Below are positions 10,170 to 27,505 of a stretch of 32,000 nucleotides of DNA, in pieces. Source of the DNA: Geotalea uraniireducens Rf4 (lineage in GTDB: Bacteria > Desulfobacterota > Desulfuromonadia > Geobacterales > Geobacteraceae); contig NC_009483.1 of assembly GCF_000016745.1 (NCBI RefSeq), positions 2,430,001-2,462,000 on the forward strand. The letters are read 5' to 3'. Each line of letters starts with the position of its first letter. Position 1 is the stretch's first letter. Below the pieces are notes generated by a model. It saw only the letters and a list, made by a program, of their open reading frames with translations. It was not told the origin of the DNA and ran no database searches. A program made the position numbers and the translations under genes.

Positions 10170-10222
10170 ATTATGTCCTTATTCCCTTGCACTATTCATG
10201 CTGAATTTGCTAACATGTAGAT

Positions 10223-10678
10223 ATGTCGGAAAAGTTGATCTGCAACAATAAAAAAGCCTATCACGATTACTTCATCGAGGAGAAGTTCGAAGCGGGCATG
10301 GTGCTCAAGGGCACCGAGGTAAAGTCGCTGCGAATAGGCAAGGCAAACCTGAATGATTCGTTTGCCCTGGTGAAAAACGGCGAGGCTTTTCTGCATAATC
10401 TCCACATTTCCCCCTACGATTTCGGCAACCGTGAAAACCACGATCCTGATCGGATGCGAAAACTCCTCCTCCACAAGAAGGAGATCGGCAAGCTCTTCAG
10501 CATGATCCGGGAACAGGGATACACCGTTGTGCCGCTCCGGCTCTATTTCAAGGACGGCTTGGTCAAGGTCGAAGTGGGGCTGGCCAAAGGTAAAAAACTT
10601 TACGACAAGCGCGAAGACATGAAAAAGAAGGATATGCGCAGGGATGTTGCGGTAGCTTTGAAGGAAAGAAACAGATAG
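10223..10678 (+). CDS. smpB: SsrA-binding protein SmpB
   Basis: [29 protein letters not shown] and the C-terminal basic tail. Directly upstream of tmRNA. Confidence 0.95.
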
Positions 10679-10774
10679 AGGCGGTCGATAGTCGTCGGTT
10701 AATGGTAAATTCATTCACAACAATTGATTCACAACGATTTTTCTATCGACCATAAACCATAAACTGATTTAAAC

Positions 10775-11128
10775 GGGGGTGTAAAGGTTTCGACGGGGGT
10801 AATAAGCAAAGGTTGCATGCCGAGGTCCGGGTGGCTCGTTAAACAATCCGGGACGTTTTTAAACGCCGATAATTATAATTACGCTTTAGCAGCTTAATAA
10901 CCTGCTAACGATCTACCGCGCCTCTCCCATGGGTTAGGATAGATCGTCATTTTAGTGGGATAGCCGAGGGGAGGGCCTGTGGTCCCGAGGCGAAACTTTA
11001 GCAGGATCGAAATCCAGATATCCCGGCCAGTGGAGCTTTGGATGGCTAAAATAAAAACTGGTATAAGCATGTAGACGCCTTTCGTGTACGATCTTCGGAC
11101 GCGGGTTCGATTCCCGCCACCTCCACCA
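10775..11128 (+). ncRNA. ssrA: tmRNA (SsrA), tag reading frame encoding ADNYNYALAA
   Basis: 5' GGGGGTGTAAAGGTTTCGACGGGGG and 3' GGACGCGGGTTCGATTCCCGCCACCTCCACCA form the tRNA-Ala-like acceptor/T-arm. Internal frame GCC GAT AAT TAT AAT TAC GCT TTA GCA GCT TAA TAA. Confidence 0.95.
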
Positions 11129-12388: not shown

Positions 12389-12761
12389 GGATAAAAAAAT
12401 AACGTATCGTCAAGCACTTTTGCGTTATGCATAACAGATAGGCAGGATATGTAACTACCTGTAATTACTTGTCAATATAAATGTGCATGTGTATACAGTA
12501 TATTTTGAACCATGTAATCCCTGGCGATACAAAAAACAAATGTAAAAAGTGCATAACTACAAGTAACTACTACAAAAAGTAATGAGTTCTAATTATCGGA
12601 AAGGGGTGTTCGTGAACCGATCATGGCGCCGTTGTGTCGTGGCGCTAACCGCCTTTCTCGTTGACTTTAGCCGGTAAAGGGTGTAATAAACTTGCGTAAT
12701 TTTGCGGTGTTATGGGCGAAAGGTGATGGAGTGCGAACGCCGGGGGATAATGAAGTAACGA

Positions 12762-12800
12762 AAGCCGCCATTGTCAGCATGGTGCTGAATGCGGCTTTTG
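12762..12800 (+). terminator. Terminator-like long imperfect hairpin in ORF-free DNA upstream of the HEPN/MNT operon
   Basis: AAGCCGCCATTGTCAGCA-TGG-TGCTGAATGCGGCTT followed by TTTG. The T-run is short. Confidence 0.4.
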
Positions 12801-12890
12801 AGTTTGTGCTGACTGTTTCCCAAACCGTAGATTGATTTATAATGATTTAACCGGAATATACCGGGTTAGGCTTAACCTGGTGGAGGTACT

Positions 12891-13334
12891 ATGATCCTTA
12901 ACACCGATCACCTTAGGCGTTGCATCCGGACAATGCAATCGTCGCTGACCCTGTATGAACAGGCTGAGTCGGAGAGCATCGACCAGGAAGTCTTTCGCAA
13001 CGCCATCGTGAAGGGATACGAGTTGACGCAGGAAACCGCCTTCAAACTGCTGAAAAAGGCCCTCAGGGACTTCGGGCACGGGGCAAAGAAGCTCGATGCT
13101 ACGCCGATTAAGGAGATCTTGCGTCTTGCCGCCACCCATGGCCTAATGACGCTGGAAGAGGTGGAGCGCTGGTTTGCCTACCGCGACAACCGCAACAGCA
13201 CGGCGCACGATTACGGCGAAGGCTTCGCCAAAGAGACTTTGGTCCTGCTTCCCGGGTTCATTGCTGACGTCACCCGGCTGGAAGCCATGCTCCGCGAACG
13301 GTTCGGCGAGAAAGACGACAATGCCCAGGCTTGA
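12891..13334 (+). CDS. HEPN-domain protein, HI0074-type nucleotidyltransferase substrate-binding family (putative HepT-like toxin)
   Basis: Rx4H motif in YRDNRNSTAHDY. All-helical sequence typical of the HI0074 family. Overlaps the downstream MNT gene by 14 nt. Confidence 0.8.
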   Translation: MILNTDHLRRCIRTMQSSLTLYEQAESESIDQEVFRNAIVKGYELTQETAFKLLKKALRDFGHGAKKLDATPIKEILRLAATHGLMTLEEVERWFAYRDNRNSTAHDYGEGFAKETLVLLPGFIADVTRLEAMLRERFGEKDDNAQA

Positions 13335-13656
13335 TGCAGCTGCCCTCCATCTTCTCCCTCGCTACCTGGAGTTGGTGCGTACCGTGCTAAGCCGCCACCT
13401 TCCCCAAGCGGAGGTGTGGGCCTATGGCAGCCGCGTGAACGGCGATTGCCATGAGGCCAGCGACCTCGATCTGGTTGTGCGCAATCCTGCCGCGTTCGAT
13501 GAAGTTCTGCCCGACCTCCCTGACCTCAAGGAAGCCCTCGTGGAGAGCAACCTCCCCATTCGAGTAGATGTGGTAGATTGGGCGCGAATACCTGAATCGT
13601 TCCGCCGGGAGATTGAACGGGCGTATGTGGTGGTGCGTAGGGGCGGGGAAGAGTAA
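13321..13656 (+). CDS. Minimal nucleotidyltransferase (MNT-domain, putative MntA-like antitoxin)
   Basis: YGSRVNGDCHEASDLDLVV (GS-x-n-DxD pol-beta NTase motif). I place the start at ATG 13321 (MPRLDAAALH...) rather than the track's 13174, which overlaps the HEPN gene. Confidence 0.8.
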   Translation: MPRLDAAALHLLPRYLELVRTVLSRHLPQAEVWAYGSRVNGDCHEASDLDLVVRNPAAFDEVLPDLPDLKEALVESNLPIRVDVVDWARIPESFRREIERAYVVVRRGGEE

Positions 13657-13719
13657 ATGGTGGAAAGTGCCGGTGAGAGCCTCATTGACGAAAATCTGAA
13701 AACGGAGCTTTTGCGGTAA

Positions 13720-13983
13720 ATGATGGAAGAGATCATCAGGATAGATACAGCCGACGAACAGGGGAAGCCACCGGAAGAGGAAGGGATAGAAATCCCCCTG
13801 GACAGGATAAACCCGGATACGCTGCGCAACATGCTGTCGGAGTTTGTCACCAGGGAATGGGCGGATGAAGAATGCACCCTGGAAGCGAGGATCGAACAGG
13901 TCCTGGGCCAGTTGCGCGAGCATAAAGCCAAAGTAATGTACGACTTCAGAACGGAAACCTGGAATATTGTCCAGTGCCGATGA
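13720..13983 (+). CDS. YheU/UPF0270-family small protein
   Basis: IPLDRINPDTLRNMLSEFVTREW...LEARIEQVLGQLREHKAKVMYDFRTETWNIV follows the YheU pattern (IPWQ.L...TL.NLI..FVLREGTDYG...L...V..V..QL..G.A.L). Recognised from memory. Confidence 0.65.
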   Translation: MMEEIIRIDTADEQGKPPEEEGIEIPLDRINPDTLRNMLSEFVTREWADEECTLEARIEQVLGQLREHKAKVMYDFRTETWNIVQCR

Positions 13984-14060
13984 CATACCTCGCCGATTTG
14001 ACCCTCCACTTCGTTGATCATCACTGTCCAGCCACTAATTACAAGTAGCGAAAGGTTGAC
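13879..14060 (+). repeat. Island repeat, copy A (yheU 3' end plus ~75 bp downstream core)
   Basis: Aligns by eye with 16627-16809 at roughly 90 percent identity. Its last ~70 bp (CTCGCCGATT...CCACTTCGTTGATCATCACTGTCCAGCCAC.AATTACAAGTAGCGAAAGGTTGAC) also align with 18548-18612. Confidence 0.85.
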
Positions 14061-14085
14061 ACCAGGCGTTTCCAGGGTGTAAATA
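14056..14085 (+). promoter_or_regulatory. Sigma70-type promoter of module copy 1
   Basis: TTGACA-N18-TAAATA, conserved exactly in copy 2. Confidence 0.55.
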
Positions 14086-14161
14086 GAAGGCTGTTTTTAT
14101 GCGATATGGGAGTTTTGGGGATGGGTGAAAAAAAAGCGGAAAAGCGGTCGTGCTGAGGGAT

Positions 14162-14204
14162 AAAAACCGCCTTGGTCAATGATTTCTGACCGGCGGCTTT
14201 TTTT
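14162..14204 (+). terminator. Intrinsic terminator closing a ~115-nt leader/sRNA (module copy 1)
   Basis: CCGCC-TT-GGTCA-ATGATTTC-TGACC-GGCGG followed by CTTTTTTT, about 45 nt upstream of the 60-aa ORF. Confidence 0.7.
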
Positions 14205-14248
14205 CGTATAACAGCGGACATATTGGATAAATTGAAGGAGAAATATAG

Positions 14249-14431
14249 ATGGCAATGACAGTTGAAATCAAAGGCAATAAGCTTTGCATCGAAATTGACC
14301 TGGAAAAGCCGACACCCTCTGCATCCGGGAAAACCCTCGTGGTTGCCAGCACCCGGGGGAATGCCGTTACCACGGCTGAGGTTGACGGTAAGCCGGTGAC
14401 GATAGGGTTGAATGCGTATATCAAGCCGTGA
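14249..14431 (+). CDS. Small conserved hypothetical protein (60 aa), copy 1
   Basis: GAAGGAGA RBS. The protein is identical to the 18979-19161 copy despite 7 nucleotide differences, all synonymous. Confidence 0.8.
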   Translation: MAMTVEIKGNKLCIEIDLEKPTPSASGKTLVVASTRGNAVTTAEVDGKPVTIGLNAYIKP

Positions 14432-14603
14432 GGGGAGCGGTATTGGGGACTGAGAGAATTGTAAAAGTGATTTTTTATGATTCTCATGCTTTTGTGACCC
14501 CCATGTTCTTGGGAGAATTACATTGTCTCTTGAATGTTGATCAAATAGAATGTCAATCGGCTTCATGACTTATTCTGTCACACAAGTGTGATAAGGAGAT
14601 AGA

Positions 14604-15776
14604 ATGGAGATTCCTGCACATTACAGAGGCCGCGAACAGGCACTCATAAAGCATCAACTTCTGGAGACCTATCTCTACAAGCTGTTCATGATTGTTGGAC
14701 AGCACCAGCCAACGATCTCCTATGTCGATTGCTTTGCTGGCCCATGGCAGGTGGCATCGGACGATATGAGCGACACGTCAATAGGTCGCTCACTTTCTAC
14801 CATGAAAAACTGTCTTGAGAGCCTTCGGGATATGGGCCACAATGTCCGTTTCCGTGCCCTGTTCATAGAGAAGGATGTGACTGCATACCACCGGCTCAGA
14901 GGATATCTTGACTCCCTCGACACTCCTGTCGAGACCGAATCATTCCATGGTGAGTTCTACAATGTTCGCCACAAAATCCTCGATTGGTGTGGCCCAGCAG
15001 GATTTACCTTTTTCTTTGTCGATCCACTCGGCTGGAAGGGCATCGTCGAGGTTCCCACGCTGGAACCGTTTCTTCAGCGGCCTAACTCCGAATTCCTCAT
15101 AAACTTCATGTTTGAATTTATTCTCCGAGCGCATGACATACGCAAGCATGAGAAGGACATGATCGCAATTTTCGGCCAGGTTCCCCAGACAGATGATATG
15201 ACACCCGACCAGAAGGAATCCTACTTGGTTAATCTCTACCGGGCGAATCTGAAAAGAGTCCAACCGTTGCGGGGTGGTAAACCACGCTCCGTTACAGTAC
15301 CGATCCAGCGTCCTGGCAAGAATCGAACTCTCTACCATCTCGTCTACCTGACCCGTCATCCTCTCGGTATTGTCAAGTTCATGGAAGCATCGGAGCCCCT
15401 GGACTTCGTTCAGAAAGCTGTCCGCATACAGGCGAAGCATGATAAAAAGATTGAGACGACAGGACAATGTGAACTTTTTGGTGCCCTCGAAAATGTCAAG
15501 ATAGAGCAAGGAAACGTCCCTATCTCCGTGGTCAAGGAATACTGGCTCAGACAGCTTACTTCTCAACCACAATTATTCGGCATAGACAAACTCGCCGACA
15601 TGCTCGAAGAAACAGGCTGGTTCGAAAGCAATTTTCAAGAAGCCTTCCATGAACTTCAGAGGGAAGGTAAAGCAAAGAACCTCGATGATGCAGAAAAATC
15701 CAAGCGTCGGAAGAAGTTCGTTCATTTCGACGCGAACCGCAATTGTGGCGAGCGACTGGCAAAGGTGATACGATGA
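14604..15776 (+). CDS. tcmP: Three-Cys-motif partner protein TcmP-like (390 aa), function unknown
   Basis: The N-terminal pattern REQALIKHQLLETYL...YVDCFAGPW...FFFVDPLGW matches my recollection of the TIGR04474 family, which always neighbours DUF5131. AAGGAGA RBS. A 14-bp palindrome, TCACACAAGTGTGA, lies just upstream. Confidence 0.7.
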   Translation: MEIPAHYRGREQALIKHQLLETYLYKLFMIVGQHQPTISYVDCFAGPWQVASDDMSDTSIGRSLSTMKNCLESLRDMGHNVRFRALFIEKDVTAYHRLRGYLDSLDTPVETESFHGEFYNVRHKILDWCGPAGFTFFFVDPLGWKGIVEVPTLEPFLQRPNSEFLINFMFEFILRAHDIRKHEKDMIAIFGQVPQTDDMTPDQKESYLVNLYRANLKRVQPLRGGKPRSVTVPIQRPGKNRTLYHLVYLTRHPLGIVKFMEASEPLDFVQKAVRIQAKHDKKIETTGQCELFGALENVKIEQGNVPISVVKEYWLRQLTSQPQLFGIDKLADMLEETGWFESNFQEAFHELQREGKAKNLDDAEKSKRRKKFVHFDANRNCGERLAKVIR

Positions 15777-16549
15777 GCACACAAACATCAATAGAATGGA
15801 CCGAGCAGACCTGGAACCCCGCTGTGGGATGCAGCAAGGTGTCTCCCGGCTGTGCCAACTGCTATGCTGAGGCGATGGCCAAGCGCCTGCAGGCTATGAG
15901 GGTGAAGGGCTACGAAAACGGCTTTGCCCTGACCCTGTTACCCAATCGGCTGGAAGAGCCGCTGAAGCGGACCAAATCAACCATCTACTTCGTCAACTCC
16001 ATGAGCGATCTTTTTCATGAAGAGATCCCAGACGACTACATACGACAAGTGTTTGACGTGATCCGCCGAGCGCCGCAGCATACCTTTCAGGTGCTGACCA
16101 AGCGAGCTGAGCGGATGGCTGAATTTTTCCGGAGTTATGAACCACCAAGAAATGCTTGGCTGGGGGTGACGGTGGAGGATCGGAAATTCGGAGTTCCCCG
16201 TCTGGACTGGCTTCGCCAAGTGCCGGCACACATTCGATTTGTCTCCGTGGAACCGCTGCTGGAGGATTTGGGGAAGCTTGATTTGACCGGGATTCACTGG
16301 GTCATCGTCGGCGGAGAATCGGGGCCGAAGGCACGCCCGATGCAGCAGGAGTGGGTGCTGAACATCAAACGCCAATGCGACGAGCAATGTTCCGCCTTCT
16401 TCTTCAAACAGTGGGGAGGATGGGGCGTTGATGGTAAGAAGCGGGCGAAGAAGGAAAATGGGCGGTTGTTGCAGGGTAGGACGTGGGACGCGGTGCCGTT
16501 AGCATCGACACCCCCCAATGTTCAACAGTTTGAAATTGCAGGCTCGTGA
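15773..16549 (+). CDS. DUF5131 (phage Gp37/Gp68 family) protein with N-terminal three-Cys motif
   Basis: IEWTEQTWNPAVGCSKVSPGCANCYA (C-x6-C-x2-C), FVSVEPLLEDL, WVIVGGESGP and FFFKQWGG. I start it at ATG 15773 (MSTQTS...), which overlaps the tcmP stop as ATGA. Confidence 0.85.
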   Translation: MSTQTSIEWTEQTWNPAVGCSKVSPGCANCYAEAMAKRLQAMRVKGYENGFALTLLPNRLEEPLKRTKSTIYFVNSMSDLFHEEIPDDYIRQVFDVIRRAPQHTFQVLTKRAERMAEFFRSYEPPRNAWLGVTVEDRKFGVPRLDWLRQVPAHIRFVSVEPLLEDLGKLDLTGIHWVIVGGESGPKARPMQQEWVLNIKRQCDEQCSAFFFKQWGGWGVDGKKRAKKENGRLLQGRTWDAVPLASTPPNVQQFEIAGS

Positions 16550-16626
16550 AGTGGGTGGTAGATGCCTATTTGAGATTTTGTAAAATGTGTAGCTCCGGTA
16601 CTTATGTTTTCCGCTTATGTTTTCCG

Positions 16627-16731
16627 CTGGAAACGAGGATCGAACAGGTTCTGCACCAGCTGCGCGAACGTAAAGCAAAAGTAATGTATGACTTCAGAAC
16701 GGAAACCTGGAATATTGTCCAATGCCGATGA
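16627..16731 (+). pseudogene. Orphan 3' fragment of a second yheU-like gene (last 34 codons)
   Basis: Encodes LETRIEQVLHQLRERKAKVMYDFRTETWNIVQCR, versus LEARIEQVLGQLREHKAKVMYDFRTETWNIVQCR in the intact gene. No matching N-terminal part is present; the track ORF 16546-16731 begins in unrelated sequence. Confidence 0.8.
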
Positions 16732-16809
16732 CCATACCTCACCGATTTGACCATCCACTTCGTTGATCATCACTATCCAGCCACCAATTACAAATAGCGA
16801 AAGGTTGAC
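16627..16809 (+). repeat. Island repeat, copy B (diverged yheU 3' fragment plus core)
   Basis: See copy A. It diverges from copies A and C right after AAAGGTTGAC, so it lacks the -10 element and the leader. Confidence 0.85.
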
Positions 16810-16851
16810 CGATCACGTCAACTCCATCTGGACCATTCGATGGTTGTTAAC

Positions 16852-16889
16852 AATTACAGCTTGATTTTACTGTAATTGAGCCATATAAT
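16852..16889 (+). promoter_or_regulatory. hipBA promoter with overlapping inverted-repeat operator
   Basis: TTGATT-N17-TATAAT (16861-16889). The 8-bp perfect inverted repeat AATTACAG-N10-CTGTAATT (16852-16877) spans the -35 region. Confidence 0.6.
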
Positions 16890-16917
16890 ACCCGTAAAAC
16901 ATTGCAAGGGGTATTTT

Positions 16918-17265
16918 ATGACCCGAAACAGTTTGAGTAAAGAAGGGTTGCCGACCCCAGCGCAGCAGGCGGTCGAGGTGTTGGGAAGAAACATCCGGAT
17001 CGCCCGCAAACGCCGGGGCTGGAGCCTGGACGAGATGGCCGGGAGCATGCTGGTAACTCGCAAGACCCTCTCCCGACTGGAGAACGGCGATCCGGCAGTG
17101 GGGTTGTCCGTGTTGGCCGCGGCCCTGCATGTGCTGAACATGACGGACGATCTGAAGAAGGTTGCAACCCCGGAGAGCGATTCGGTGGGGATGTTTTACG
17201 AAAAACAGCGCCTGCCCCGGCGGGTCGGGAAAAAGAAGACTTCTGCTGACGATCTTGATTTCTAA
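16918..17265 (+). CDS. hipB: XRE-family HTH antitoxin (HipB-like)
   Basis: GRNIRIARKRRGWSLDEMAGSMLVTRKTLSRLENGD is a Cro/C1 HTH. Immediately upstream of hipA. I use ATG 16918 (MTRNSL...). Confidence 0.8.
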   Translation: MTRNSLSKEGLPTPAQQAVEVLGRNIRIARKRRGWSLDEMAGSMLVTRKTLSRLENGDPAVGLSVLAAALHVLNMTDDLKKVATPESDSVGMFYEKQRLPRRVGKKKTSADDLDF

Positions 17266-17267
17266 GG

Positions 17268-18506
17268 ATGCCTGTCTTGGCCCGAGAACACAAAGTATAT
17301 GTCTTCATTTACCTTCCCGGCGAGACCACGGCGGTTCCGGCTGGGCTGTTCACCCATTACCCCGATGACGGCATCGGCCGTTTTGCCTATGGCCGCCGTT
17401 ACCTGGAGCGCCCTAACGCCCTGCCGGTGGACCCTGTGGCGCTGCCTTTGGGTGGCATGCCCAGGGATGTCACCACCAATGGCGGTCTGTACGGCGCCTT
17501 CCGTGACTCGTCTCCCGATTACTGGGGGCGGCTGGTTGTTGCCGCTGAAGCACGCATGCCGCCCGAAGCCCTGGATGAAACGGATTATCTCCTGCGCGCC
17601 AATGCATCGAGGATCGGTTGCCTCGATTTCCGGGCTTCGCTGGAGCAGGGTGAACCCGTGGTCGGACCGCCCGGTTTTCAATCGCTGGCAGAACTTCTGG
17701 ATGCCGCTTCGGATCTGGCAGCCGGAAAACAGGTCAGACAGGATCTGCTGCGGCTTCTGGAGCAGGGTTCGAGCGTCGGCGGCGCCCGGCCCAAGTGTAC
17801 CGTAGAGTTGGATGATGCCCTCTGGATAGCCAAATTCCCGGCCAAGGACGATACGATCAACTTCCCCAAGGTCGAGTACGCCACCATGACCCTGGCGGGG
17901 AGGTGCGGGATCAACGTGCCGACAATGCGTGTCGTGGCTATCGGCGGCAGGGATGTGCTGCTGGTGAAACGCTTCGACCGGCACAAGTCTGGCGGCGGGT
18001 ATCAACGGTTCGGTTTCCTGAGCGCCCTGTCACTCATGGAATGGGACGAACGGGACCGCACAGAGTGGAGCTATCCGGCCCTGGCGGACAGGATGCGCGC
18101 AACCATTCTGGCCCAGCGGGCACAAACCGGGGAACTCTTTCGCCGGATGCTGTTTAACGTGCTGTGCCGGAATACGGACGACCATCCCCGCAACCACGGC
18201 TTCCTGTGGGGCGAACGGGCAACGGCCCTTTCCCCGGCCTATGATATTGTGCCGTCATTGGCCCGGCCCGGCGTAACCACTGAATTTTCCCTTTCCATGT
18301 CCCTGGGCGAAAGGGGCAGGGAAGCGACCCTGGCCAATGCCGTGAGTATGCATGCCCGCTTCGGGCTGACACGGAGTGAAGCGGAACAGGTCATCGACGA
18401 CATGCGGGCCTGTGTGGCGAAGTGGGAGCAACTCTTCATCACCTGCGGGGTTTCCGAGGCGGACAGGGATGCTGTCCGGGCTTCGTTTGCCGTGGCGACG
18501 TCGTAG
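17268..18506 (+). CDS. hipA: HipA-family serine/threonine kinase toxin
   Basis: GSSVGGARPKCTV, WIAKFP, LLVKRFDR and CRNTDDHPRNHGFLW are canonical HipA N- and C-domain motifs. Confidence 0.9.
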   Translation: MPVLAREHKVYVFIYLPGETTAVPAGLFTHYPDDGIGRFAYGRRYLERPNALPVDPVALPLGGMPRDVTTNGGLYGAFRDSSPDYWGRLVVAAEARMPPEALDETDYLLRANASRIGCLDFRASLEQGEPVVGPPGFQSLAELLDAASDLAAGKQVRQDLLRLLEQGSSVGGARPKCTVELDDALWIAKFPAKDDTINFPKVEYATMTLAGRCGINVPTMRVVAIGGRDVLLVKRFDRHKSGGGYQRFGFLSALSLMEWDERDRTEWSYPALADRMRATILAQRAQTGELFRRMLFNVLCRNTDDHPRNHGFLWGERATALSPAYDIVPSLARPGVTTEFSLSMSLGERGREATLANAVSMHARFGLTRSEAEQVIDDMRACVAKWEQLFITCGVSEADRDAVRASFAVATS

Positions 18507-18607
18507 TGGCGACCGGTCGTTCGCTCCGACATCATTCGATGGCATAACTCGCCGATTCCACTTCGTTGATCATCACTGTCCAGCCACCGATTACAAGTAG
18601 CGAAAGG

Positions 18608-18637
18608 TTGACACCAGGCGTTTCCAGGGTGTAAATA
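18608..18637 (+). promoter_or_regulatory. Sigma70-type promoter of module copy 2
   Basis: Identical TTGACA-N18-TAAATA to copy 1. Confidence 0.55.
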
Positions 18638-18713
18638 GAAGGCTGTTTTTATGTGATATGGGAGTTTTGGGGATGGGTGAAAAAAAAGCGGAAAAGCGGT
18701 CGTGCTGAGGGAT

Positions 18714-18756
18714 AAAAGCCGCCTTGGTCAATGATTTCTGACCGGCGGCTTTTTTT
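18714..18756 (+). terminator. Intrinsic terminator closing the leader (module copy 2)
   Basis: AGCCGCC-TT-GGTCA-ATGATTTC-TGACC-GGCGGCT plus TTTTTT. The single A-to-G difference from copy 1 extends the stem. Confidence 0.7.
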
Positions 18757-18776
18757 ACTGTAACAGCGGACATATC

Positions 18777-18971
18777 GGATAAATTGAAGGAGAGCTCACT
18801 CTCAAGCTGACCAACTTCAATTATACCTATTTATACTTGAAACTAGATATAAATGTGTATAAATTGCTCGCCATTTCGTGTGTCCGGCGTGCGGGGCTGC
18901 CGTGCCTATTGAGGTTTGGCGGGGCGGTGAGCTCTGTGGTAACTGTTTTTTTCAGGATAAATTGAAGGAGA
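18777..18971 (+). repeat. 17-bp direct duplication (GGATAAATTGAAGGAGA) flanking a 161-bp insert between leader and 60-aa ORF
   Basis: Direct repeats at 18777-18793 and 18955-18971. The insert starts GCTCAC and ends near GTGAGCTC (short inverted repeat) and contains AT-rich promoter-like sequence (TTGAAA...TATAAA). The insert is absent from module copy 1. Confidence 0.75.
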
Positions 18972-18978
18972 ACTCCCC

Positions 18979-19161
18979 ATGGCAATGACAGTTGAAATCA
19001 AAGGCAATAAGCTTTGCATCGAAATTGACCTGGAAAAGCCGACACCCTCTGCATCCGGGAAAACCCTCGTGGTTGCCAGCACCAGGGGGAATGCCGTTAC
19101 TACGGCCGAGGTTGATGGCAAACCGGTGACGATAGGGTTGAATGCGTATATTAAGCCGTGA
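18979..19161 (+). CDS. Small conserved hypothetical protein (60 aa), copy 2
   Basis: Same protein as 14249-14431. GAAGGAGA RBS. Confidence 0.8.
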   Translation: MAMTVEIKGNKLCIEIDLEKPTPSASGKTLVVASTRGNAVTTAEVDGKPVTIGLNAYIKP

Positions 19162-19290
19162 AGGGAGAGGTGTTGAGGGCTGAAGGAATTTAAAATTGAT
19201 TTTTCAAGAACTGGCCTTCCTTGCCCCTGCTTATTCTTCTCAGATTTTTGTAAAATTTAGGATGACTATATTGTTCAGGAGAGCATCTGC

Positions 19291-20811
19291 GTGTTGACTG
19301 GTGAAAACAAGGCAAAGATTGACAAGATATGGGATGCGTTCTGGACGGGTGGGATTTCCGATTCCCTGCGGGTGATCGAGCAGATGTCGTACCTGCTGTT
19401 TATCAAGCGGCTGGATGACCTCCACACGGCAAAGGAGAAGAAGGCCAACCGGCTGGGCAAGCCGATCGAGGAGCCGATCTTCGGGCCGAAGCAGGATCAT
19501 CTGCGCTGGTCGCGCTTCCGGGAGTTCGAGGCGGGGGAGATGTTCCGCGTGGTGAGCCAGGAGGTCTTCCCCTTCATCAAGAATCTGCACGGCAACGAGG
19601 AGAGCGCCTACGCCCGGCACATGAAGGACGCTATCTTCATGATCCCCACCCCGAGCCTCCTGGAGCGGGTGGTGGAGCAGATCAGCCAGGTGCCGATGGA
19701 AGACCGGGACACCAAGGGGGACCTGTACGAGTACATGCTCTCCAAGCTGACTACTGCCGGCAGAAACGGCCAGTTCCGCACCCCTCGCCATATCATCAAG
19801 ATGATGGTGGAGCTGATGCAGCCCCGGCCCGACGATATCATCTGCGACCCGGCCTGCGGCACGGCGGGCTTCCTGGTGGCGGCCGGAGAATACCTGCGCG
19901 AGCATCACGGCGATTTGTTCCATAATGAAAAGCTGAAGAAGCACTTCAACGAAAAGCTCTTCAACGGCTTCGACTTCGACTCCACCATGCTCCGCATCGC
20001 CAGCATGAACATGATGCTGCACGGTGTGGAGAACCCGGCCATCGAGGCGCGGGATTCGCTTTCCAGTGCTGCCGACATAGCAGATGCATATACCCTGATT
20101 TTAGCCAATCCTCCCTTCAAGGGGTCGCTGGATGAGGATACCGTCGCCAAGGACCTGCTGCGTACGGTCAAGACCAAGAAGACCGAGCTGCTGTTCATCG
20201 CTCTGATGCTGCGGCTGTTGAAGCCGGGCGGGCGCTGTGCGGTGATTGTTCCGGACGGGGTGCTGTTCGGCTCCAGTAAGGCGCACCTGGACCTGCGCAA
20301 GATACTGGTGGACGGCCACAAGCTGGAGGCGATGATCTCCATGCCCTCCGGTGTGTTCCGCCCCTATGCGGGGGTCTCCACCGGAATACTGATCTTCACC
20401 AAGACCAACTCCGGCGGCACGGATCATGTCTGGTTTTACGACATGCAGGCCGATGGCTTCTCGCTGGATGACAAGCGCAATCCGGTGGAGCAGAACGATA
20501 TTCCCGATGTAGTAGAGTCGTGGCTTCGGCTCCGCTCAGCCACCGGGCTTCTCTCAACTGCCGGGCAGGTCGAAGGTGGTACGCTGAGCGGAGTCGAAGC
20601 GGGACGTACCGCCAAATCCTTCCTCGTCTCGGTGCAGGAGATTCGCGACAACAAGTACGACCTCTCCATCAACCGTTACAAGAAAGTGGAGCATGAGGAG
20701 GTGGCCTACGAGCCGCCGCAGGTTATCATTGCCCGGTTGGAGGCGCTGGAGCGGGAGATTGCCGGGGAGTTGGCGGAGTTGGCCCTTCGACTCCGCTCAG
20801 GGAACGATTAA
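19291..20811 (+). CDS. hsdM: Type I restriction-modification system methyltransferase subunit HsdM (N6-adenine), carrying an in-frame repeat insertion
   Basis: N-terminal KIWDAFWTGGI...IEQMSYLLFIKRLDD, FRTPRHII, DPACGTAGFL (motif I) and ANPPFKG (motif IV). GTG start with a GGAGAG RBS. Confidence 0.92.
   Translation: MLTGENKAKIDKIWDAFWTGGISDSLRVIEQMSYLLFIKRLDDLHTAKEKKANRLGKPIEEPIFGPKQDHLRWSRFREFEAGEMFRVVSQEVFPFIKNLHGNEESAYARHMKDAIFMIPTPSLLERVVEQISQVPMEDRDTKGDLYEYMLSKLTTAGRNGQFRTPRHIIKMMVELMQPRPDDIICDPACGTAGFLVAAGEYLREHHGDLFHNEKLKKHFNEKLFNGFDFDSTMLRIASMNMMLHGVENPAIEARDSLSSAADIADAYTLILANPPFKGSLDEDTVAKDLLRTVKTKKTELLFIALMLRLLKPGGRCAVIVPDGVLFGSSKAHLDLRKILVDGHKLEAMISMPSGVFRPYAGVSTGILIFTKTNSGGTDHVWFYDMQADGFSLDDKRNPVEQNDIPDVVESWLRLRSATGLLSTAGQVEGGTLSGVEAGRTAKSFLVSVQEIRDNKYDLSINRYKKVEHEEVAYEPPQVIIARLEALEREIAGELAELALRLRSGND
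20523..20600. repeat. Palindromic repeat element U1 (78 bp) inside the hsdM coding sequence, in frame
   Basis: GCTTCGGCTCCGCTCAGCCACCG ... GGTGGTACGCTGAGCGGAGTCGAAGC. It translates as LRLRSATGLLSTAGQVEGGTLSGVEA (26 codons). Confidence 0.8.
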
Positions 20812-21290
20812 GGTCTGGCTTCGGCTCCGCTCAGCCACCGGGCGTCTCCGTTTGCCGGTGCGGTGGTTTTCGGTGGCTGAGCGGAGTCGAAGCCAGGTTT
20901 AGGGGAATATCCAGCATGCCCTACATGTACATCCTCGAATGCGCGGACGGCAGCTACTACACGGGAAGCACCAAGGATCTGGATCGCCGTCTTTGGGAGC
21001 ATCAGAACGGACTGGGCGCGAATCATACAGCCAGGAGGCTTCCCGTAAAACTTGTTTACTGTGAGGAATGCGACCGCATCGATGACGCGTTCTATCGTGA
21101 AAAACAGGTTCAGGGATGGAGCCGAAAAAAGAAAGAGGCTTTGATGGCAAGTGATACAAATCAGCTTCATCGGTTGGCGGTTTGTCGGAATGAAAGCCAT
21201 TGTGCTGGCTTCGGCTCCGCTCAGCCAGCGGACACCGACACCGCTCAATTAAAAGATAACCTTGCCTGTTCCCTGAGCGGAGTCGAAGGG
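20783..21290. mobile_element. GIY-YIG gene cassette bounded by 20-bp perfect inverted repeats, at the hsdM/hsdS junction
   Basis: CCCTTCGACTCCGCTCAGGG (20783-20802) is the exact reverse complement of CCCTGAGCGGAGTCGAAGGG (21271-21290). Inside are palindromic unit U2 (20817-20894), the GIY-YIG ORF and a forward half-site (21207-21230). Confidence 0.7.
20817..20894. repeat. Palindromic repeat element U2 (78 bp), intergenic
   Basis: GGCTTCGGCTCCGCTCAGCCACCG-spacer-CGGTGGCTGAGCGGAGTCGAAGCC, the same family as U1. Confidence 0.85.
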
Positions 21291-21314
21291 AACAAAAAGG
21301 GGATGGTGGAATGA
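20916..21314 (+). CDS. Small GIY-YIG nuclease family protein (core ~85 aa; the tail reads through repeat sequence)
   Basis: YMYILECADGSYYTGSTKDLDRRLWEHQ...ANHTARRLP.KLVY...REKQVQGWSRKKK are the GIY, YIG, R, H and E catalytic-core elements. The C-terminal GFGSAQPA and SLSGVEGN are translations of the repeat family. The stop overlaps the hsdS ATG (ATGA). Confidence 0.8.
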   Translation: MPYMYILECADGSYYTGSTKDLDRRLWEHQNGLGANHTARRLPVKLVYCEECDRIDDAFYREKQVQGWSRKKKEALMASDTNQLHRLAVCRNESHCAGFGSAQPADTDTAQLKDNLACSLSGVEGNKKGMVE

Positions 21315-22492
21315 AGTACTCTTATGTTCCACTAGGTGGACTTGTAACAATATCCGGTGGTGGTACGCCGAGTCGGAATAATGATGCTTACTGGGGTGGC
21401 AGCATTCCATGGGCTACGGTAAAAGACCTTAAAGACACCATGCTTTCCGGCACGCAAGAAACAATTACTCCCGAAGGACTTAGAGATAGTGCATCGAACC
21501 TGATTCCTGCGGGCAGTGTGATCGTTGCAACACGCATGGGTCTTGGTAAGGTTGCAATCAACACGATGGATGTAACCATCAATCAGGATTTGAAAGCGTT
21601 TTCATGTGGCGCTGATCTTGAACCTCGTTATTTGCTGTATTTCCTTCTCGCGAATGCTTCACATCTCGATTCAATGGGAAAAGGAGCTACCGTCAAGGGC
21701 ATTACGCTTGATGTTCTTAAAGATCTTTCCGTCCCTCTCCCCCCACTCCCCGAACAAAAGCGCATCGCTGCCATCCTCGACAAGGCTGATTCTATCCGGC
21801 GAAAGCGGCAGGAGGCGGTACGGTTGACTGAGGAACTGCTGCGCTCGGTGTTTCTGGATATGTTTGGTGATCCGGAAAGTAATAACTGGCCGATGATGAC
21901 CATAGCCGGAGTTGCGCTGCCAGGAGTTAGCGCAATTCGGACCGGGCCATTTGGCAGTCAACTCCTACACAGCGAGTTCGTCGATGAAGGCGTTGCAGTT
22001 CTGGGGATTGATAATGCTGTAGCTAATGAATTCCGTTGGAACGAACGCCGCTATATATCTGAGGCAAAATATCGCGAATTATCACGATATACCGTAAGAC
22101 CAGGCGACGTCATTATCACTATTATGGGAACATGCGGTCGGTGTGCAGTTGTACCGGACGATATACCAGTTGCAATCAATACAAAACATCTTTGTTGCAT
22201 CACGCTTGACCAAACAAAATGCCTGCCGGTTTTTGTTCATGCATATTTTCTACAACATTGCATTGCCCGACGTTACCTGGAGAAAACAGCTAAAGGTGCA
22301 ATAATGGACGGCCTGAACATGGGTATTATCAAGGATATGCCAATTCCTATACCCCCTCTAAAGCTCCAGGAAAAATTCGCATGTTCTATTGCAGCTATTG
22401 AAAAATTAAGACACACGACTCGGTCAACCTTGGCAGAACAAGACACCCTCTTTCACTCTCTCCTGCAACGCGCCTTCAATGGGGCGTTGTAA
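21311..22492 (+). CDS. hsdS: Type I R-M specificity subunit HsdS (two target-recognition domains)
   Basis: Two conserved spacer helices, PLPPLPEQKRIAAILDKADSIRRKRQEA...LLRSVFLDMFG and IPIPPLKLQEKFACSIAAIEKL...LFHSLLQRAFNG, separated by variable TRDs. Confidence 0.9.
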   Translation: MKYSYVPLGGLVTISGGGTPSRNNDAYWGGSIPWATVKDLKDTMLSGTQETITPEGLRDSASNLIPAGSVIVATRMGLGKVAINTMDVTINQDLKAFSCGADLEPRYLLYFLLANASHLDSMGKGATVKGITLDVLKDLSVPLPPLPEQKRIAAILDKADSIRRKRQEAVRLTEELLRSVFLDMFGDPESNNWPMMTIAGVALPGVSAIRTGPFGSQLLHSEFVDEGVAVLGIDNAVANEFRWNERRYISEAKYRELSRYTVRPGDVIITIMGTCGRCAVVPDDIPVAINTKHLCCITLDQTKCLPVFVHAYFLQHCIARRYLEKTAKGAIMDGLNMGIIKDMPIPIPPLKLQEKFACSIAAIEKLRHTTRSTLAEQDTLFHSLLQRAFNGAL

Positions 22493-22497
22493 ACCGA

Positions 22498-22633
22498 GCT
22501 TCGACTCCGCTCAGCCACCGCGCTTCGACTCCGCTCAGCCACCGCGCTTCGACAACACTCAACACAATTCCGCTCTCTTCACTCTGTGGCTCAGCTTCCA
22601 AATGTTGCCCGGTCCCTGAGCGGAGTCGAAGGG
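22498..22633. repeat. Repeat cluster U4: 24-bp unit GCTTCGACTCCGCTCAGCCACCGC in 2 tandem copies plus an 8-nt partial third, then the inverted half-site
   Basis: Units at 22498-22521 and 22522-22545, partial at 22546-22553. Inverted CCCTGAGCGGAGTCGAAGGG at 22614-22633. Confidence 0.85.
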
Positions 22634-22725
22634 CCGCTCAGCCGATGTTAAATTTTGGACAGACAGAAACAATTTGACCTTTTCATGTCCATAACGTACA
22701 ATTTGTACAAATGGAGGTTGTCATC

Positions 22726-22977
22726 ATGACCAAAATATCAACAGCAGAAGCCCGCAATGATTTCGCCGATGTCATCAACCGGGCATCGTTCGGCAAGGAA
22801 CGCTTTGTCCTGACGCGGCGAGGTAAAAAACTGGTCGCGATTGTACCGGTTGAAGACCTGGAGCTTCTCGAAGAGATGGAAGACCGAATGGACGTTGAAG
22901 CGGCCAAGGCGGCCCTGGCAGAATCCGATGAGCGGGTTTCGTATGAGGATTTGCGTCGTGAGCTGGGGCTTAAATGA
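22726..22977 (+). CDS. Phd/YefM-family antitoxin
   Basis: ISTAEARNDFADVINRASFGKERFVLTRRGKKLVAIVPVEDLE. GGAGG RBS. Palindrome GTACA-ATT-TGTAC upstream. The stop overlaps the toxin start (ATGA). Confidence 0.85.
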   Translation: MTKISTAEARNDFADVINRASFGKERFVLTRRGKKLVAIVPVEDLELLEEMEDRMDVEAAKAALAESDERVSYEDLRRELGLK

Positions 22978-23231
22978 CCTATCGGATTGAGTTGACCAAG
23001 ACGGCGGAACGGGATTTATTGGCTGTTCCCAAACCAGTTTTGAAACGGCTGGATGCTTGCATCCTCGGACTGGCAGACGATCCGCTGCCGCCGGGAGTAA
23101 AGAAGCTCAAGAACAGTGACGGCCTGTACCGTGTGAGAGTGAGCGATTATCGCATTATCTACCGCATTGAGCAGGAAATTTTGACTGTCCTGGTTGTCAA
23201 GATAGGCCACCGGCGGGAAGTTTATCGTTAG
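22974..23231 (+). CDS. RelE/ParE-family toxin
   Basis: Has the fold pattern typical of the 85-aa RelE/ParE family: IELTKTAERDL...L..DP.PPG.KKL....GLYRVRVSDYRIIYRIE.E.L.V.VVKIGHRREVY. Confidence 0.85.
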   Translation: MTYRIELTKTAERDLLAVPKPVLKRLDACILGLADDPLPPGVKKLKNSDGLYRVRVSDYRIIYRIEQEILTVLVVKIGHRREVYR

Positions 23232-23268
23232 CATCAATTGCCTTTTTCAATGATATCCCGGAGGGGTA

Positions 23269-25822
23269 GTGTCCAATTTCACCTTCCTCAACACCGACTG
23301 GCCCGAGCTGTGTGAGATAGCCCGCGAAGCCGAGCAGAACGTCAACAGCGCCCCTCGGACCAGTTGTTTCTATGCCCGGCGCTCGCTGGAGAGGGCGGTG
23401 AAGTGGCTCTATACCAATGACTCCTACCTCAGGCAACCCTACGCCGACAACCTGGCCGCACTGATCCACGAACCGACCTTCCGGGAGAACCTGGAACCCT
23501 GCCTCTTCCCCAAGATCCTCACCATCCAGAAAATCGGCAACCTGGCCGTCCACAGCGACAAACCGATCAGCAACAGTGATTCCCTCCACACTCTCAAAGA
23601 ACTCTTCCACGTCCTCTACTGGCTGGCCCGCAGCTATTCCCCAAATGCGGCGGCCATTGGCAAACCGCTCTTCGACATCTCCAAAATCCCGCAGAAGGAC
23701 AGTGCCGTTGCCGACCGCAACGCCGAGCAGCTGGCCAGGATGCAGGCCGACCTGTCGGAAAGAGACGCCAGACTGGCCGCTAAGGATGCGGAGCTGGCCA
23801 GGACGATAGATGAAATAGAGGCCCTCAAAGCCAGGATTCAGCCCCGGCCATTTCGACCTGATCGTCATCGACGAGGCCCACCGCTCTGTCTACCAGAAGT
23901 TCTGCGCCATCTTAGAGTATTTCGACTCCCTGCTGCTGGGGCTTACCGCCACGCCGCGGGCCGAGGCGGACCGGGATACCTACCGGCTGTTCGAGCTGGA
24001 GAAGGGGGTTCCCACCTACTACTACGAGCTGGGGCAGGCGGTGACGGACGGCTTCCTGGTGCCGCCAAAGGCCCACTCGGTGCCGCTCAAGTTCCAGCGG
24101 GAGGGGATCAGCTACAACGAGCTCTCCGAAGAGGAACAGTTGGAGTACGAGGAGAAATTCTGGGACGAGGAAGCCGGCGGCATGCCGGAGAAGATCGACC
24201 CGCCGGCCTTGAACAACTGGCTGTTTAACATCGACACCGTGGATAAAGTGCTGGAGCACCTGATGCGGCACGGTCTCAAGGTGGCTGGTGGCGACCGATT
24301 GGGGAAAACGATCATCTTTGCCAAGAACCACAACCACGCCCTCTTTATCCAGGAGCGCTTCGACGCCAACTACCCCCACCTGAAAGGAAAGTTCTGCCGA
24401 ATCATCGACAACTATGAATCCTATGCCCAGAGCCTGATCGACGACTTCTCGGTAAAGGAGAACGACCCGACCATCGCCATTTCGGTGGACATGCTGGACA
24501 CCGGCATCGACGTGCCGGAAATCGTCAACTTGGTCTTCTTTAAGCTTGTCCGCTCCAAAACCAAGTTCCACCAGATGATGGGGCGCGGCACCAGGCTCTG
24601 CAAGGAGCTGTTCGGGCCGGGAGAGGACAAGAAGGAGTTTTACGTCTTCGACTACTGCCAGAATTTCGAGTTCTTTGCCGAAAAACCGGAAGGGGTGGAG
24701 AGCGGCAGCCAGGAGTCGCTGGGCAAGAAGATCTTCAAGCAGCGTCTGAACCTGCTTGTCCGCCTGCAACAGCCGGACTACCCGGCCAGCGACGAAGAGC
24801 GGCGCCTGCGGGGGAGTCTGGAGGATACCCTGCATGGCGAGGTATCCGTGATGAACCCGGACAACTTCATCGTCCGTCCCCATCGCCGACATCTGGAGAA
24901 ATACAGTGCCAGGGACAAGTGGAACAGTTTGAGCGCGGAAGACGAACTGGAAGTGAGGCTCCATCTGGCGGGACTGCCGGCGGAGCTCCCGCAGGAAGAC
25001 GAGACCGCCAAACGCTTCGACCTGCTGTTGCTGAACCTGCAACTGGCACTGTTGGAGAAATCCGGCTCCTTTGCCCGTTACCGGGACAAGGTGATGGAGA
25101 TCGCCGCCCGGCTGGAAGGGAAAGGGACGATCCCCATGGTGGCACAACAGATGGAGCTGATCCTGGAGCTGCAAACGGAAGGGTACTGGGCCGGTATTAC
25201 TCTGCCCATGCTTGAAGAGGTGCGCGTCCGCTTGCGGCAGCTGATCAAGTTCCTGGACAAAGGCGAGGCGCGGATCGTCTATACCGACTTCGAGGATAGT
25301 ATCGGCGACCATACTCCCATATTTGTGCCGGGTTATTCCAGTGCGGAGGATATGCGCCAGTATCGGCTGAAGGTGGAACGCTTCATCCGCGACCATGCCG
25401 GGCACATCACCATCAACAAGCTGCGGATGAACCGGCATATTACCCGGCAGGACCTGGAAGAGCTGGAGCGGCTATTGTTTACAGCGGAAGAGGTGGGGAG
25501 CCGGGAGCGTTTCGAGAAGGTCTTCGGCCACCAGCAGAGCCTAGGGGCGTTTATCCGCAGCCTGGTCGGCCTGGACCGGGAAGCGGCCACCGAGGCCTTC
25601 GGCGAATTCCTGCACGGCACGACCTACTCGGCTACCCAGATCAGGTTCATCGATCAGATCATAGCTTATCTGACCCAGAACGGCACCATGGACCCCGGAC
25701 TGCTCTACGAGCCACCATTTACCGATATTCACGACGAAGGGTTGGACGGGGTGTTTGGCGATGAGGGGGCGACGAAGATTATACATTTGCTGGAAGAGAT
25801 CACCCTGAAGGCGGCTGTGTAA
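23269..25822 (+). pseudogene. hsdR: Type I restriction enzyme R subunit (HsdR) with internal deletion and frameshift
   Basis: Frame 1 encodes an N-terminal DUF4145-like domain plus coiled coil up to ...EIEALKARIQ (about 23840). Frame 2 then continues as GHFDLIVIDEAHRSVYQKF...LTATP...helicase C-domain...MMGRGTRL to 25822. No PD-(D/E)xK nuclease domain or Walker A (motif I) lies between them, and there is no in-frame start before 24041. Confidence 0.8.
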
Positions 25823-25924
25823 TCAAATCCCTACGCGATGGACAAATGAAAAATTCCGCTCAGTTCATGCTGGATAGCACACAGGAACAGTTGAAACTGA
25901 TTGCGGATGATGTGGGGGAAAGCG

Positions 25925-26164
25925 ATGAATCGGCATGACCAGCCGTACGACTGGCAGCGGTTCTGGATACACTTCGTGTGCGGCGCCCTGATTGGCGGTG
26001 GAATCGGTTTTTTCTACTGGTTCCGTCACTGGCACGCCGGGCTGTCCGTGTGGGGTTGCACCGCCTTTCCGTCGCTGGCTCTCGCCTTGCTCGGTGGGGT
26101 ATTCGGGGACTGCTTCTGGGAGGGTTTCCTCAAATTCATCCGCCGCTGGTACTGGTGGGTGTGA
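25925..26164 (+). CDS. Small hypothetical membrane protein (79 aa, two hydrophobic segments)
   Basis: MNRHDQPYDWQRFWIHFVCGALIGGGIGFFYWF...AFPSLALALLGGVFG, with GGGGGA upstream. No family recognised. Confidence 0.4.
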   Translation: MNRHDQPYDWQRFWIHFVCGALIGGGIGFFYWFRHWHAGLSVWGCTAFPSLALALLGGVFGDCFWEGFLKFIRRWYWWV

Positions 26165-26245
26165 CGAGAGAGGTAATAGTCAAAGGACCGATCAAGCCGG
26201 ATCGGACAGATCGGTTTGTCGCACTACCGGGAAAGCAGGAGAGCC

Positions 26246-27028
26246 ATGAGCACTCATTCTTCAGCACTTCGCCCTCACGGCGGCTACCGCCGCCTGCGGT
26301 CATTTCAGGTGACCGAGATCATTTACGACGGCACGGTCTCCTTTTGCGACCGTTTCGTAAGCAAGCGGTCGCGGACGCATGACCAGATGGTGCAGGCCGC
26401 ACGCAGCGGGCGGCAGAACATCGCCGAAGGGAGCAGGGCATCGGCAACTTCGAGCCAGACGGAGTTGCGGCTGGTGAACGTCGCACGCGCCAGCCTGGAC
26501 GAACTGCTGCTGGATTACGAAGATTTTCTTCGCCAGCGGGGTCTGCGTCAATGGGAAAAGGACGACGCAGAGGCCCGAGCGGTGCGGGCAGCGGGGGTAA
26601 AGAGGAAAACTGATCCGACTGATCGGTCGGATCGGACTGATCGGTCGGATCGGACTGATCAGTCGGATAGTACGGCTTATGCCGCTTGGCTTGAAAACGC
26701 CGATCCGGCGGTGGTCGCCAACACGCTGATCTGCCTGATCCACCAGGCGAATTATCTGCTCGACCGGCAGATCGTCGGGCTGGAAAAGCAATTCATCCAG
26801 GAAGGCGGCTACAGCGAGCGGCTGCACGCTGCCCGGCTGGCGGAGCGGCATAAGCAGAATCAGACTGATCCGTCGGATCGGACCGATCGGTCCGAGAAAA
26901 AGCTTTGTCCAGCTTGTGGCAAGCCAATGGTATTGCGCACGGCCCGGAAGGGCTCCAACGCTGGCTCGCAGTTCTGGGGGTGTTCGGGGTATCCCGAATG
27001 CAAAACTACCCTGCCGGTGCAACCGTAA
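26246..27028 (+). CDS. Four-helix-bundle (23S rRNA IVS protein-like) domain protein with TDRSDR repeats and a C-terminal topoisomerase-type C4 zinc finger
   Basis: YRRLRSFQVTEIIYD...THDQMVQAARSGRQNIAEGS is four-helix-bundle family. CPACGKPMVLRTARKGSNAGSQFWGCSGYPECK is a zf-C4_Topoisom pattern. I use ATG 26246, preceded by AGGAGAG. Confidence 0.75.
   Translation: MSTHSSALRPHGGYRRLRSFQVTEIIYDGTVSFCDRFVSKRSRTHDQMVQAARSGRQNIAEGSRASATSSQTELRLVNVARASLDELLLDYEDFLRQRGLRQWEKDDAEARAVRAAGVKRKTDPTDRSDRTDRSDRTDQSDSTAYAAWLENADPAVVANTLICLIHQANYLLDRQIVGLEKQFIQEGGYSERLHAARLAERHKQNQTDPSDRTDRSEKKLCPACGKPMVLRTARKGSNAGSQFWGCSGYPECKTTLPVQP
26609..26668. repeat. Tandem GATCGG-rich 18-nt repeats (encoding TDPTDRSDRTDRSDRTDQSD)
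   Basis: CGGATCGGACTGATCGGT and CGGATCGGACTGATCAGT are adjacent. Related blocks occur at 26185-26214 (upstream, non-coding) and 26861-26895. Confidence 0.75.
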
Positions 27029-27471: not shown

Positions 27472-27505
27472 GCTGGACAGACATCAACAGCGTGAAGGAG
27501 AAGAT

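Follow-up and report, generated by a model that had tools for sequence, protein, structure and literature searches.

Copies of a conserved flank between the modules of a probably integrase-free defence hotspot in Geotalea uraniireducens

How can unrelated defence and toxin-antitoxin (TA) modules come to stand in a row, each behind a copy of the same sequence, without a recombinase in the surrounding DNA? This question is raised by a 32-kb stretch of the Geotalea uraniireducens Rf4 genome (NC_009483.1, positions 2,430,001 to 2,462,000; hereafter the window), where the interval between a yheU-like gene and a DUF167-nitroreductase-YjbQ flank holds a TcmP/DUF5131 pair, a hipBA pair and a type I restriction-modification (R-M) system (Table 1). 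A first-pass annotation had read this interval as a cassette array built at the 3' end of yheU, either by serial site-specific integration or by homologous exchange. The present analysis indicates that in G. uraniireducens and its close relatives it is probably a hotspot that takes up defence and TA modules without an integrase, and in which copies of the flank were left by additive, one-sided homologous recombination.

A repeat search of the window returned a 77-nt core, here called R, in three direct copies (A, B and C). For A and B, the search gave the same coordinates that had been annotated before, and the third core copy that had been described is present as well. A 30-mer of the core (CCACTTCGTTGATCATCACTGTCCAGCCAC) occurs exactly three times in the window at no more than one mismatch, and not once in 100 shuffles. 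The three copies are 4-9% different from one another: A and B agree at 95 of 105 positions in the yheU part and at 72 of 77 in the core, and C is identical to A at 67 of the 70 aligned core positions and additionally carries a 7-nt deletion. Copy B spans 182 nt, from 105 nt inside yheU to the motif GGTTGAC, and its left edge adjoins a 13-nt junction duplication. The left edge of copy C lies about 6 nt before the end of yheU, where the pentamer CGATG is common with the sequence before it. Copies A and C run more than 400 nt beyond the point at which B ends, sharing about 420 nt that comprise a promoter-like leader and an open reading frame (ORF) for a 60-aa protein, p60. In this shared stretch, 14005-14241 corresponds to 18557-18793 (97%) and 14225-14465 to 18955-19195 (91%).

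The array in the window is real. It belongs to a finished isolate genome, and contigs from other sequencing runs or samples are 100% identical to it over 12742-14034, 14324-16719, 16692-18586 and 22524-27531. The unique junctions have therefore been seen independently, that is yheU to R_A, DUF5131 to the truncated 'yheU, R_B to hipB, and hipA to R_C; among these contigs, which like the other related loci are given here by L numbers, L013 contains the DUF5131/'yheU junction and L053 both junctions of the hipBA module. Since the independent contigs are short and end inside the repeats, they leave a 237-nt, 97%-identical segment unphased, and an alternative pairing of its ends closes exactly into a 4552-bp circle (14005-18556). 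According to such a mis-phasing across the leader repeat, the chromosome would read yheU-R-leader-p60-hsdM, and p60-tcmP-DUF5131-'yheU-R-hipBA would form a separate or excised circle. This is very unlikely, given that the source is a finished isolate genome, that the leader copies differ at eight positions, by which reads could phase them, and that the putative circle is without a replication gene.

The yheU fragment in copy B is from a different yheU allele, in accordance with the first-pass annotation. Nine of its codons differ from those of the intact gene, six synonymously and three non-synonymously (A>T, G>H and H>R), and six of its variant sites are in common with the yheU allele of L008, with four being private. 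The divergence between A and C is itself a mosaic, because their leaders are identical at 175 of 181 positions (97%) and p60 with its tail at 214 of 238 (90%); moreover, p60 copy 2 and its hsdM are nearer to L008 and L012 than is p60 copy 1. The mosaic divergence of the three copies means that the pieces have different histories, which is expected if DNA of other strains was recombined in and the copies later exchanged sequence. A local tandem duplication of yheU-R-leader-p60 in one lineage, followed by divergence and by independent insertion or replacement of cargo, would involve no foreign alleles. The common orientation of all modules suits this explanation, and the similarity of the A and C leaders agrees with a duplication or gene conversion of fairly recent date. 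It is nevertheless unlikely, since the copy B fragment departs from the intact gene by 9.5% and has variants in common with a yheU allele from another strain, p60 copy 1 is the one farther from L008 and L012, and duplication alone would not supply three unrelated cargoes.

The arrangement of the repeats also recalls tandem accretion, in which a site-specific recombinase acts in trans on an attachment (att) site in R or in the 3' end of yheU, leaving modules that resemble cis-mobilizable elements (CIMEs), with the integrase located elsewhere, for instance on an island linked to ssrA, or with XerCD as the enzyme. Three direct repeats that include a gene 3' end, each followed by a self-contained module, are in line with this, as are the position of the transfer-messenger RNA (tmRNA) gene, which lies together with smpB 2.6 kb upstream of yheU, and the presence in L030 of a P4-type integrase and AlpA about 9 kb upstream of yheU. 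The properties of R, however, make tandem accretion quite unlikely. In distant Geobacteraceae (L014, L017, L018 and L034-L036) yheU is followed by a short spacer and then by a gene of the VF530 family, which the window lacks; the spacer is 69 nt long in L017, L018 and L034, and 18 nt long in L014. Nearly the whole of R can be aligned with the 69-nt spacer in L017, L018, L034 and L036 (CATACCTCGC.GATTTGA...CATCACT.TCCAGCCAC...TACAA), and R is therefore the ancestral sequence downstream of yheU, not one carried in by a mobile element. Furthermore, R is broken after position 34 in L030 and L032, after about position 60 in L012 and after position 77 in copy B, and hence no fixed start of the cargo was found among the relatives and copies. 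A, B and C start and end differently instead of having the same boundaries at every junction, and they lack a perfectly identical stretch in which a crossover could be placed, their differences being scattered along R. Pfam searches of the large ORFs and the annotation of the syntenic, 95%-identical strain L045 revealed no recombinase in the window, as had been claimed before, and the window does not hold a second tmRNA 3' end, for which reason the idea of an ssrA island was rejected. As regards XerCD, the cumulative GC skew rises through the whole window without a switch, which argues against a terminus/dif location. By eye, R also shows little resemblance to the E. coli dif site.

Two further identities of R were considered and rejected. 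R has no hairpin potential, as it folds worse than shuffles on both strands (z +0.9 to +2.2), which rules out an attC-like or hairpin site, and no IntI integrase was found. It is not a generic dispersed repeat either, a possibility that the earlier annotation had named as fatal to its proposal, because the central 21-mer has a single occurrence in the metagenome collection, namely at the orthologous locus. Judged from sequence, namely from the ancestral spacer, the unequal extents, the varied breaks, the missing hairpin and the lack of a recombinase in the window, the repeat is not an att site. Serial site-specific integration at the 3' end of yheU, the mechanism put first by the annotation, is not supported by these features, and the homologous exchange that it offered as an alternative fits the data.

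Comparison with relatives supports the proposed swapping of defence and TA modules at this locus. Five different contents are found between yheU and DUF167-nitroreductase-YjbQ in L008, L012, L030, L032 and the window, with flanks that are 87-96% identical. On the left, yheU is 96% identical to that of L012, and its close homologs in the Geobacteraceae number more than 300; on the right, synteny with L008, L012, L030 and L032 restarts at 27162. The same flanks with five contents therefore define a true variable hotspot, and an invariant three-cassette arrangement in all relatives, which would have spoken against the earlier proposal, is not what is seen. The content is enriched in defence systems, namely type I R-M, PDC-M30 (TcmP/DUF5131), HipBA and Phd/ParE, and Fic in L030. 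Single-copy R sites, whose existence had been raised as a check, are found in L008, L012 and L032. L008, which is about 92% identical, has only an hsdS C-terminal remnant behind R, the leader and p60, with 261 bp in place of window positions 14441-27161. A 42-aa ORF after p60 (L008 2677-2805) looks by eye like the conserved C-terminal helix of HsdS, and the 'empty' site would accordingly be what is left after loss of a type I R-M system. A single R is found in L012 and at least five more samples (about 95%), together with a deletion from R into p60 codon 13 and a decayed hsdM, phd/parE and hsdR', without tcmP, DUF5131, 'yheU and hipBA; the decayed ortholog of module 3 is found in L012 and in L045-L048. 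L032 has R truncated after CGTTGA, an HSDR_N-like gene and zinc-ribbon genes, with neither p60 nor a defence module, and L030 is organized similarly with an additional HTH-Fic pair. The integrase and AlpA genes of L030 (L030 136-1822) are located between tmRNA/smpB and yheU, and this locus is without the HEPN/MNT pair of the window. With an integrase island there in L030, and with neither an integrase nor a repeated tmRNA 3' end in the window, the DNA upstream of yheU constitutes a second variable region.

Short matches that may reflect microhomology lie at the joins between the modules. They comprise the 13-nt duplication at 16601-16626, CGATG at the hipA/R_C join and a 10-nt repeat around hipBA. 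The 10-nt sequence CATTCGATGG has only two copies in the window according to a 10-mer search, at 16834-16843 and 18533-18542, which bracket hipBA, and homology of hipBA to the L131 locus extends from about 16843 to the hipA stop codon; L131, where hipBA sits at the contig end, is the only usable relative for the context of this pair. The 10-nt repeat could be a microhomology scar, as CGATG is also the end of yheU.

Truncated copies of the anchor are present between successive modules, first the 'yheU_B fragment with R_B, which stems from a different allele, and then R_C. The most likely route to this pattern would begin with the entry of DNA from a related strain that carries another 'allele' of the locus. 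RecA would pair the incoming DNA with the conserved left flank, consisting of the yheU 3' end, the spacer R and leader-p60. Homology at both ends would lead to replacement of the content, whereas homology at one end combined with illegitimate joining at the other (homology-facilitated illegitimate recombination) would add a module and keep the resident one; a circularised fragment entering by a single, Campbell-type crossover would have the same outcome. Every addition would leave a truncated copy of the left flank between modules, and two additions would produce the observed order yheU-R_A-leader-p60-[tcmP-DUF5131]-'yheU_B-R_B-[hipBA]-R_C-leader-p60-[type I R-M]. The direct repeats left in this way (77, 182 and about 460 nt) may permit later deletion of modules by homologous recombination.

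Several considerations weigh against this probable history of integrase-free addition. The strains of the L012 type could have lost modules instead of never having had them, and the CATTCGATGG repeat could have arisen as a target-site duplication during insertion by an unrecognised mechanism. Any microhomology at the DUF5131/'yheU junction is putative. The recombination mechanism has been reconstructed from scars, and we infer it together with the order of events and the future deletions. In addition, the recombinase search covered the 32-kb window, and copies of R were sought in the same stretch.

The leader between the promoter-like site and p60 is about 115 nt long and ends in a conserved intrinsic-terminator hairpin identified by a terminator scan. 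Its -35 element (TTGACA) is perfect and its -10 element (TAAATA) weak. The first-pass annotation had placed the same promoter, leader and 60-aa ORF after A and after C. A shared unit is indeed present at both places, but the promoter is less well defined than this wording implied, since the promoter scan made no call there, and the two units are not the same throughout, because the second is broken by a 161-nt insert (18794-18954) with a flanking 17-nt direct repeat (GGATAAATTGAAGGAGA). The insert has short inverted ends (GAGCTCAC / GTGAGCTC) and a promoter-like site of its own (18837-18865), and neither the rest of the window nor the loci retrieved for comparison gave a similar sequence. The leader unit is kept in L008 (93%) and L004 (80%). 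It has no Rfam match even at a permissive threshold, tmRNA and the pan motif being the only Rfam matches in the whole window. When folded, only the terminator stem is conserved across four sequences, which are too few for covariation analysis, and the z-score is -0.43. Based on its sequence, the leader could act as an attenuator or a small RNA. Taken together, the promoter, leader and 60-aa ORF look like a self-contained, extremely conserved small gene within the duplicated flank rather than the leader of each cargo.

The two p60 copies in the window differ at 7 nt, all of them synonymous, and each unit includes a conserved 3' tail of about 45 nt. The assembly collection lists contigs with the identical protein in 56 blocks (of which 23 were examined), and their DNA is only 80-84% identical. 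Selection on p60 must therefore be very strong, because the protein is identical at this level of DNA divergence. The family has 2121 close homologs and 1694 clusters at 50% identity, all of them small stand-alone proteins without annotation. Neither the single sequence nor a profile matched anything in Pfam, NCBIfam, PHROGs, PADLOC or the PDB sequences, and a beta-rich AlphaFold model (mean predicted local distance difference test score 70.5) gave no match when compared with the PDB by Foldseek.

On Geobacteraceae-type contigs, identical p60 comes immediately before, and is read in the same direction as, Gabija (GajA E 1.8e-222, GajB E 2.3e-189), an NsnB/AriA-like ATPase, an Mrr-like enzyme, a Schlafen-like ATPase and SRAP, just as it precedes PDC-M30 and type I R-M in the window; in some cases the gap between p60 and the defence system is just 14-22 nt. 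In L004, HigBA is found about 300 nt downstream of p60 on the opposite strand, and a YjbQ 3' remnant follows p60. The varied defence systems behind an identical p60, together with the YjbQ remnant in L004, fit p60 and YjbQ as reusable anchors. In Chlorobium, p60 is a stable gene in a non-defence context. Homologs are also encoded on 76 viral contigs, some of them near replication genes; the neighbours include genes for a sliding-clamp-like protein, a DnaB-like helicase, a RadC-like protein and a DNA methyltransferase. By eye, a weak hairpin rich in A and T, with a run of T behind it, closes the p60 unit, and the different cargoes start beyond it. Read most simply, p60 is a self-contained gene that belongs to the reusable flank. 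Leader-p60 might instead be a portable 'head' of defence operons that either regulates or licenses the downstream system, or else serves as a cross-genus homology anchor for integrase-free exchange, but this is improbable. If it were true, whichever defence system is present would be preceded by a promoter, a leader resembling an attenuator and an invariant protein of 60 aa, or, in the alternative form, the near-invariant sequence would turn the slot downstream of it into a platform for integrase-free exchange. The family recurs at the edge of defence slots, has phage members and is worth an experimental test.

Table 1. Features of the yheU to YjbQ interval and its surroundings, in window coordinates.
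Feature	Coordinates	Strand	Remarks
SmpB	10223-10678	+	
tmRNA	10775-11128		
HEPN/MNT pair	12891-13656		
yheU-like gene, intact (UPF0270)	13720-13983	+	conserved left anchor; Pfam PF06794, E 1.5e-18
Repeat copy A	13879-14060	+	last 105 nt of yheU and 77-nt core R_A (13984-14060)
Leader unit 1	14046-14248	+	-35 TTGACA (14056-14061), weak -10 TAAATA (14080-14085), terminator hairpin 14163-14205
p60 copy 1	14249-14431	+	unannotated family; conserved 3' tail to ~14478
Module 1 cargo	14604-16549	+	TcmP-like and DUF5131; PADLOC candidate defence system PDC-M30
TcmP-like protein	14604-15776	+	TIGR04474, E 2.6e-32; PADLOC PDC-M30A / PDC-M30B with DUF5131
DUF5131 protein	15743-16549	+	PF07505, E 5.6e-108
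Module 1 / truncated yheU junction	16601-16626	+	13-nt tandem duplication, CTTATGTTTTCCG twice
Repeat copy B	16627-16809	+	truncated yheU 3' end, different allele (16627-16731), and core R_B (16733-16809)
Module 2	16834-18542	+	Pfam HTH_31 and HipA_C
hipB	16918-17265	+	
hipA	17268-18506	+	
Repeat copy C	~18537-18612	+	core R_C (18537-18612); starts ~6 nt before yheU stop codon position; 7-nt deletion
Leader unit 2	18598-18978	+	promoter-like site and terminator as in unit 1 (175/181 identical)
p60 copy 2	18979-19161	+	protein identical to copy 1; conserved tail to ~19208
Module 3 cargo (type I R-M)	19291-25822	+	Pfam
hsdM	19291-20811	+	
GIY-YIG gene	20916-21314	+	
hsdS	21311-22492	+	
phd	22711-22977	+	
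parE	22974-23231	+	
hsdR, two overlapping ORFs	23269-24228 and 24041-25822	+	
Zinc-ribbon/four-helix protein gene	26216-27028		
Conserved right flank	27148-28492	+	
DUF167/YggU-like	27148-27471	+	
Nitroreductase	27398-28036	+	
YjbQ/UPF0047	28076-28492	+	

The genes of the modules had been assigned correctly in the first-pass annotation, as Pfam, NCBIfam and PADLOC gave matching results. For TcmP, a literature search yielded unrelated matter and nothing pertinent. The hipBA pair has its own promoter-like site (16861-16889, scoring 10/12 in the promoter scan). The split of hsdR into overlapping ORFs points to a frameshift, and a sequencing error is unlikely because the same sequence is present in contigs of two other samples (L049 and L051). 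Palindromes that resemble repetitive extragenic palindromic (REP) elements (GCTTCGGCTCCGCTCAGCCACCG and its complement) are located at 20515-20900, 21208-21290 and 22498-22633, clustered about the GIY-YIG gene and at either end of hsdS, and a copy lies at the deletion junction of the L012-type strains. In-frame tandem repeats occur in the zinc-ribbon/four-helix gene (9-nt units, 26613-26916) and at 29227-29542 (9-nt and 15-nt units). Outside the hotspot, an ORF at 10196-10714 on the minus strand was rejected as smpB, being on the wrong strand, and the Rfam pan motif RF01749 (45.7 bits) was found at 6108-6193, upstream of panB-panC-panD.

Among known systems, chromosomal integron arrays resemble the locus in their ordered, self-contained modules, which include TA pairs, with a recurring repeat between them. 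They differ from it in that the G. uraniireducens locus lacks IntI and attC-like hairpin potential, and that its modules are several kb long with promoters of their own. Arrays of integrative and conjugative elements (ICEs) and CIMEs at tRNA or tmRNA sites similarly have direct repeats with a gene 3' end between the modules and no recombinase in the array; here, in contrast, the repeats differ in extent, do not share a crossover core and derive from an ancestral spacer.

A closer parallel in the mode of growth is offered by the orphan immunity arrays of the Vibrio cholerae type VI secretion system (T6SS) and by Rhs loci, for which a conserved upstream anchor, an illegitimate far end and the downstream displacement of older modules have been proposed (PMC5361080). 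The displacement of rhs C-termini and the orphans of contact-dependent growth inhibition (CDI) systems are cited in the same paper. In these arrays, as is likely in the window, a module enters at an upstream anchor, older modules keep a fragment of the conserved gene, and an integrase is lacking. The anchor in G. uraniireducens, however, is an unrelated neighbour (yheU, spacer and p60), while in the T6SS, Rhs and CDI loci it is the cargo's own gene (vgrG, rhs or cdiA), and the cargo consists of defence and TA operons instead of toxin tips with immunity genes. The flank duplications would thus record the addition of modules without an integrase, and 'sequential displacement', known from toxin-immunity loci, would apply to defence and TA operons as well. 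Where a core-gene flank recurs in truncated form between modules, it provides a signature that can be searched for in other hotspots.

Finally, hotspots between conserved chromosomal genes have been described as core defence hotspots (cDHS) in Pseudomonas aeruginosa (PMC10250203) and as defence-island hotspots in E. coli (PMC10121019). These share with the present locus the fixed flanking core genes, the highly variable defence and TA content and, often, the absence of mobility genes inside. The locus described here differs from them in its host, since it belongs to the Geobacteraceae, a group little studied for phage defence, in having an uncharacterised, ultra-conserved 60-aa gene as one flank, and in the duplication of the left flank itself between the modules, which makes the history of additions readable. 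To conclude, as a defence hotspot the locus is of an ordinary kind, but its scars can be read unusually well, and an intriguing, uncharacterised small gene lies at its border.

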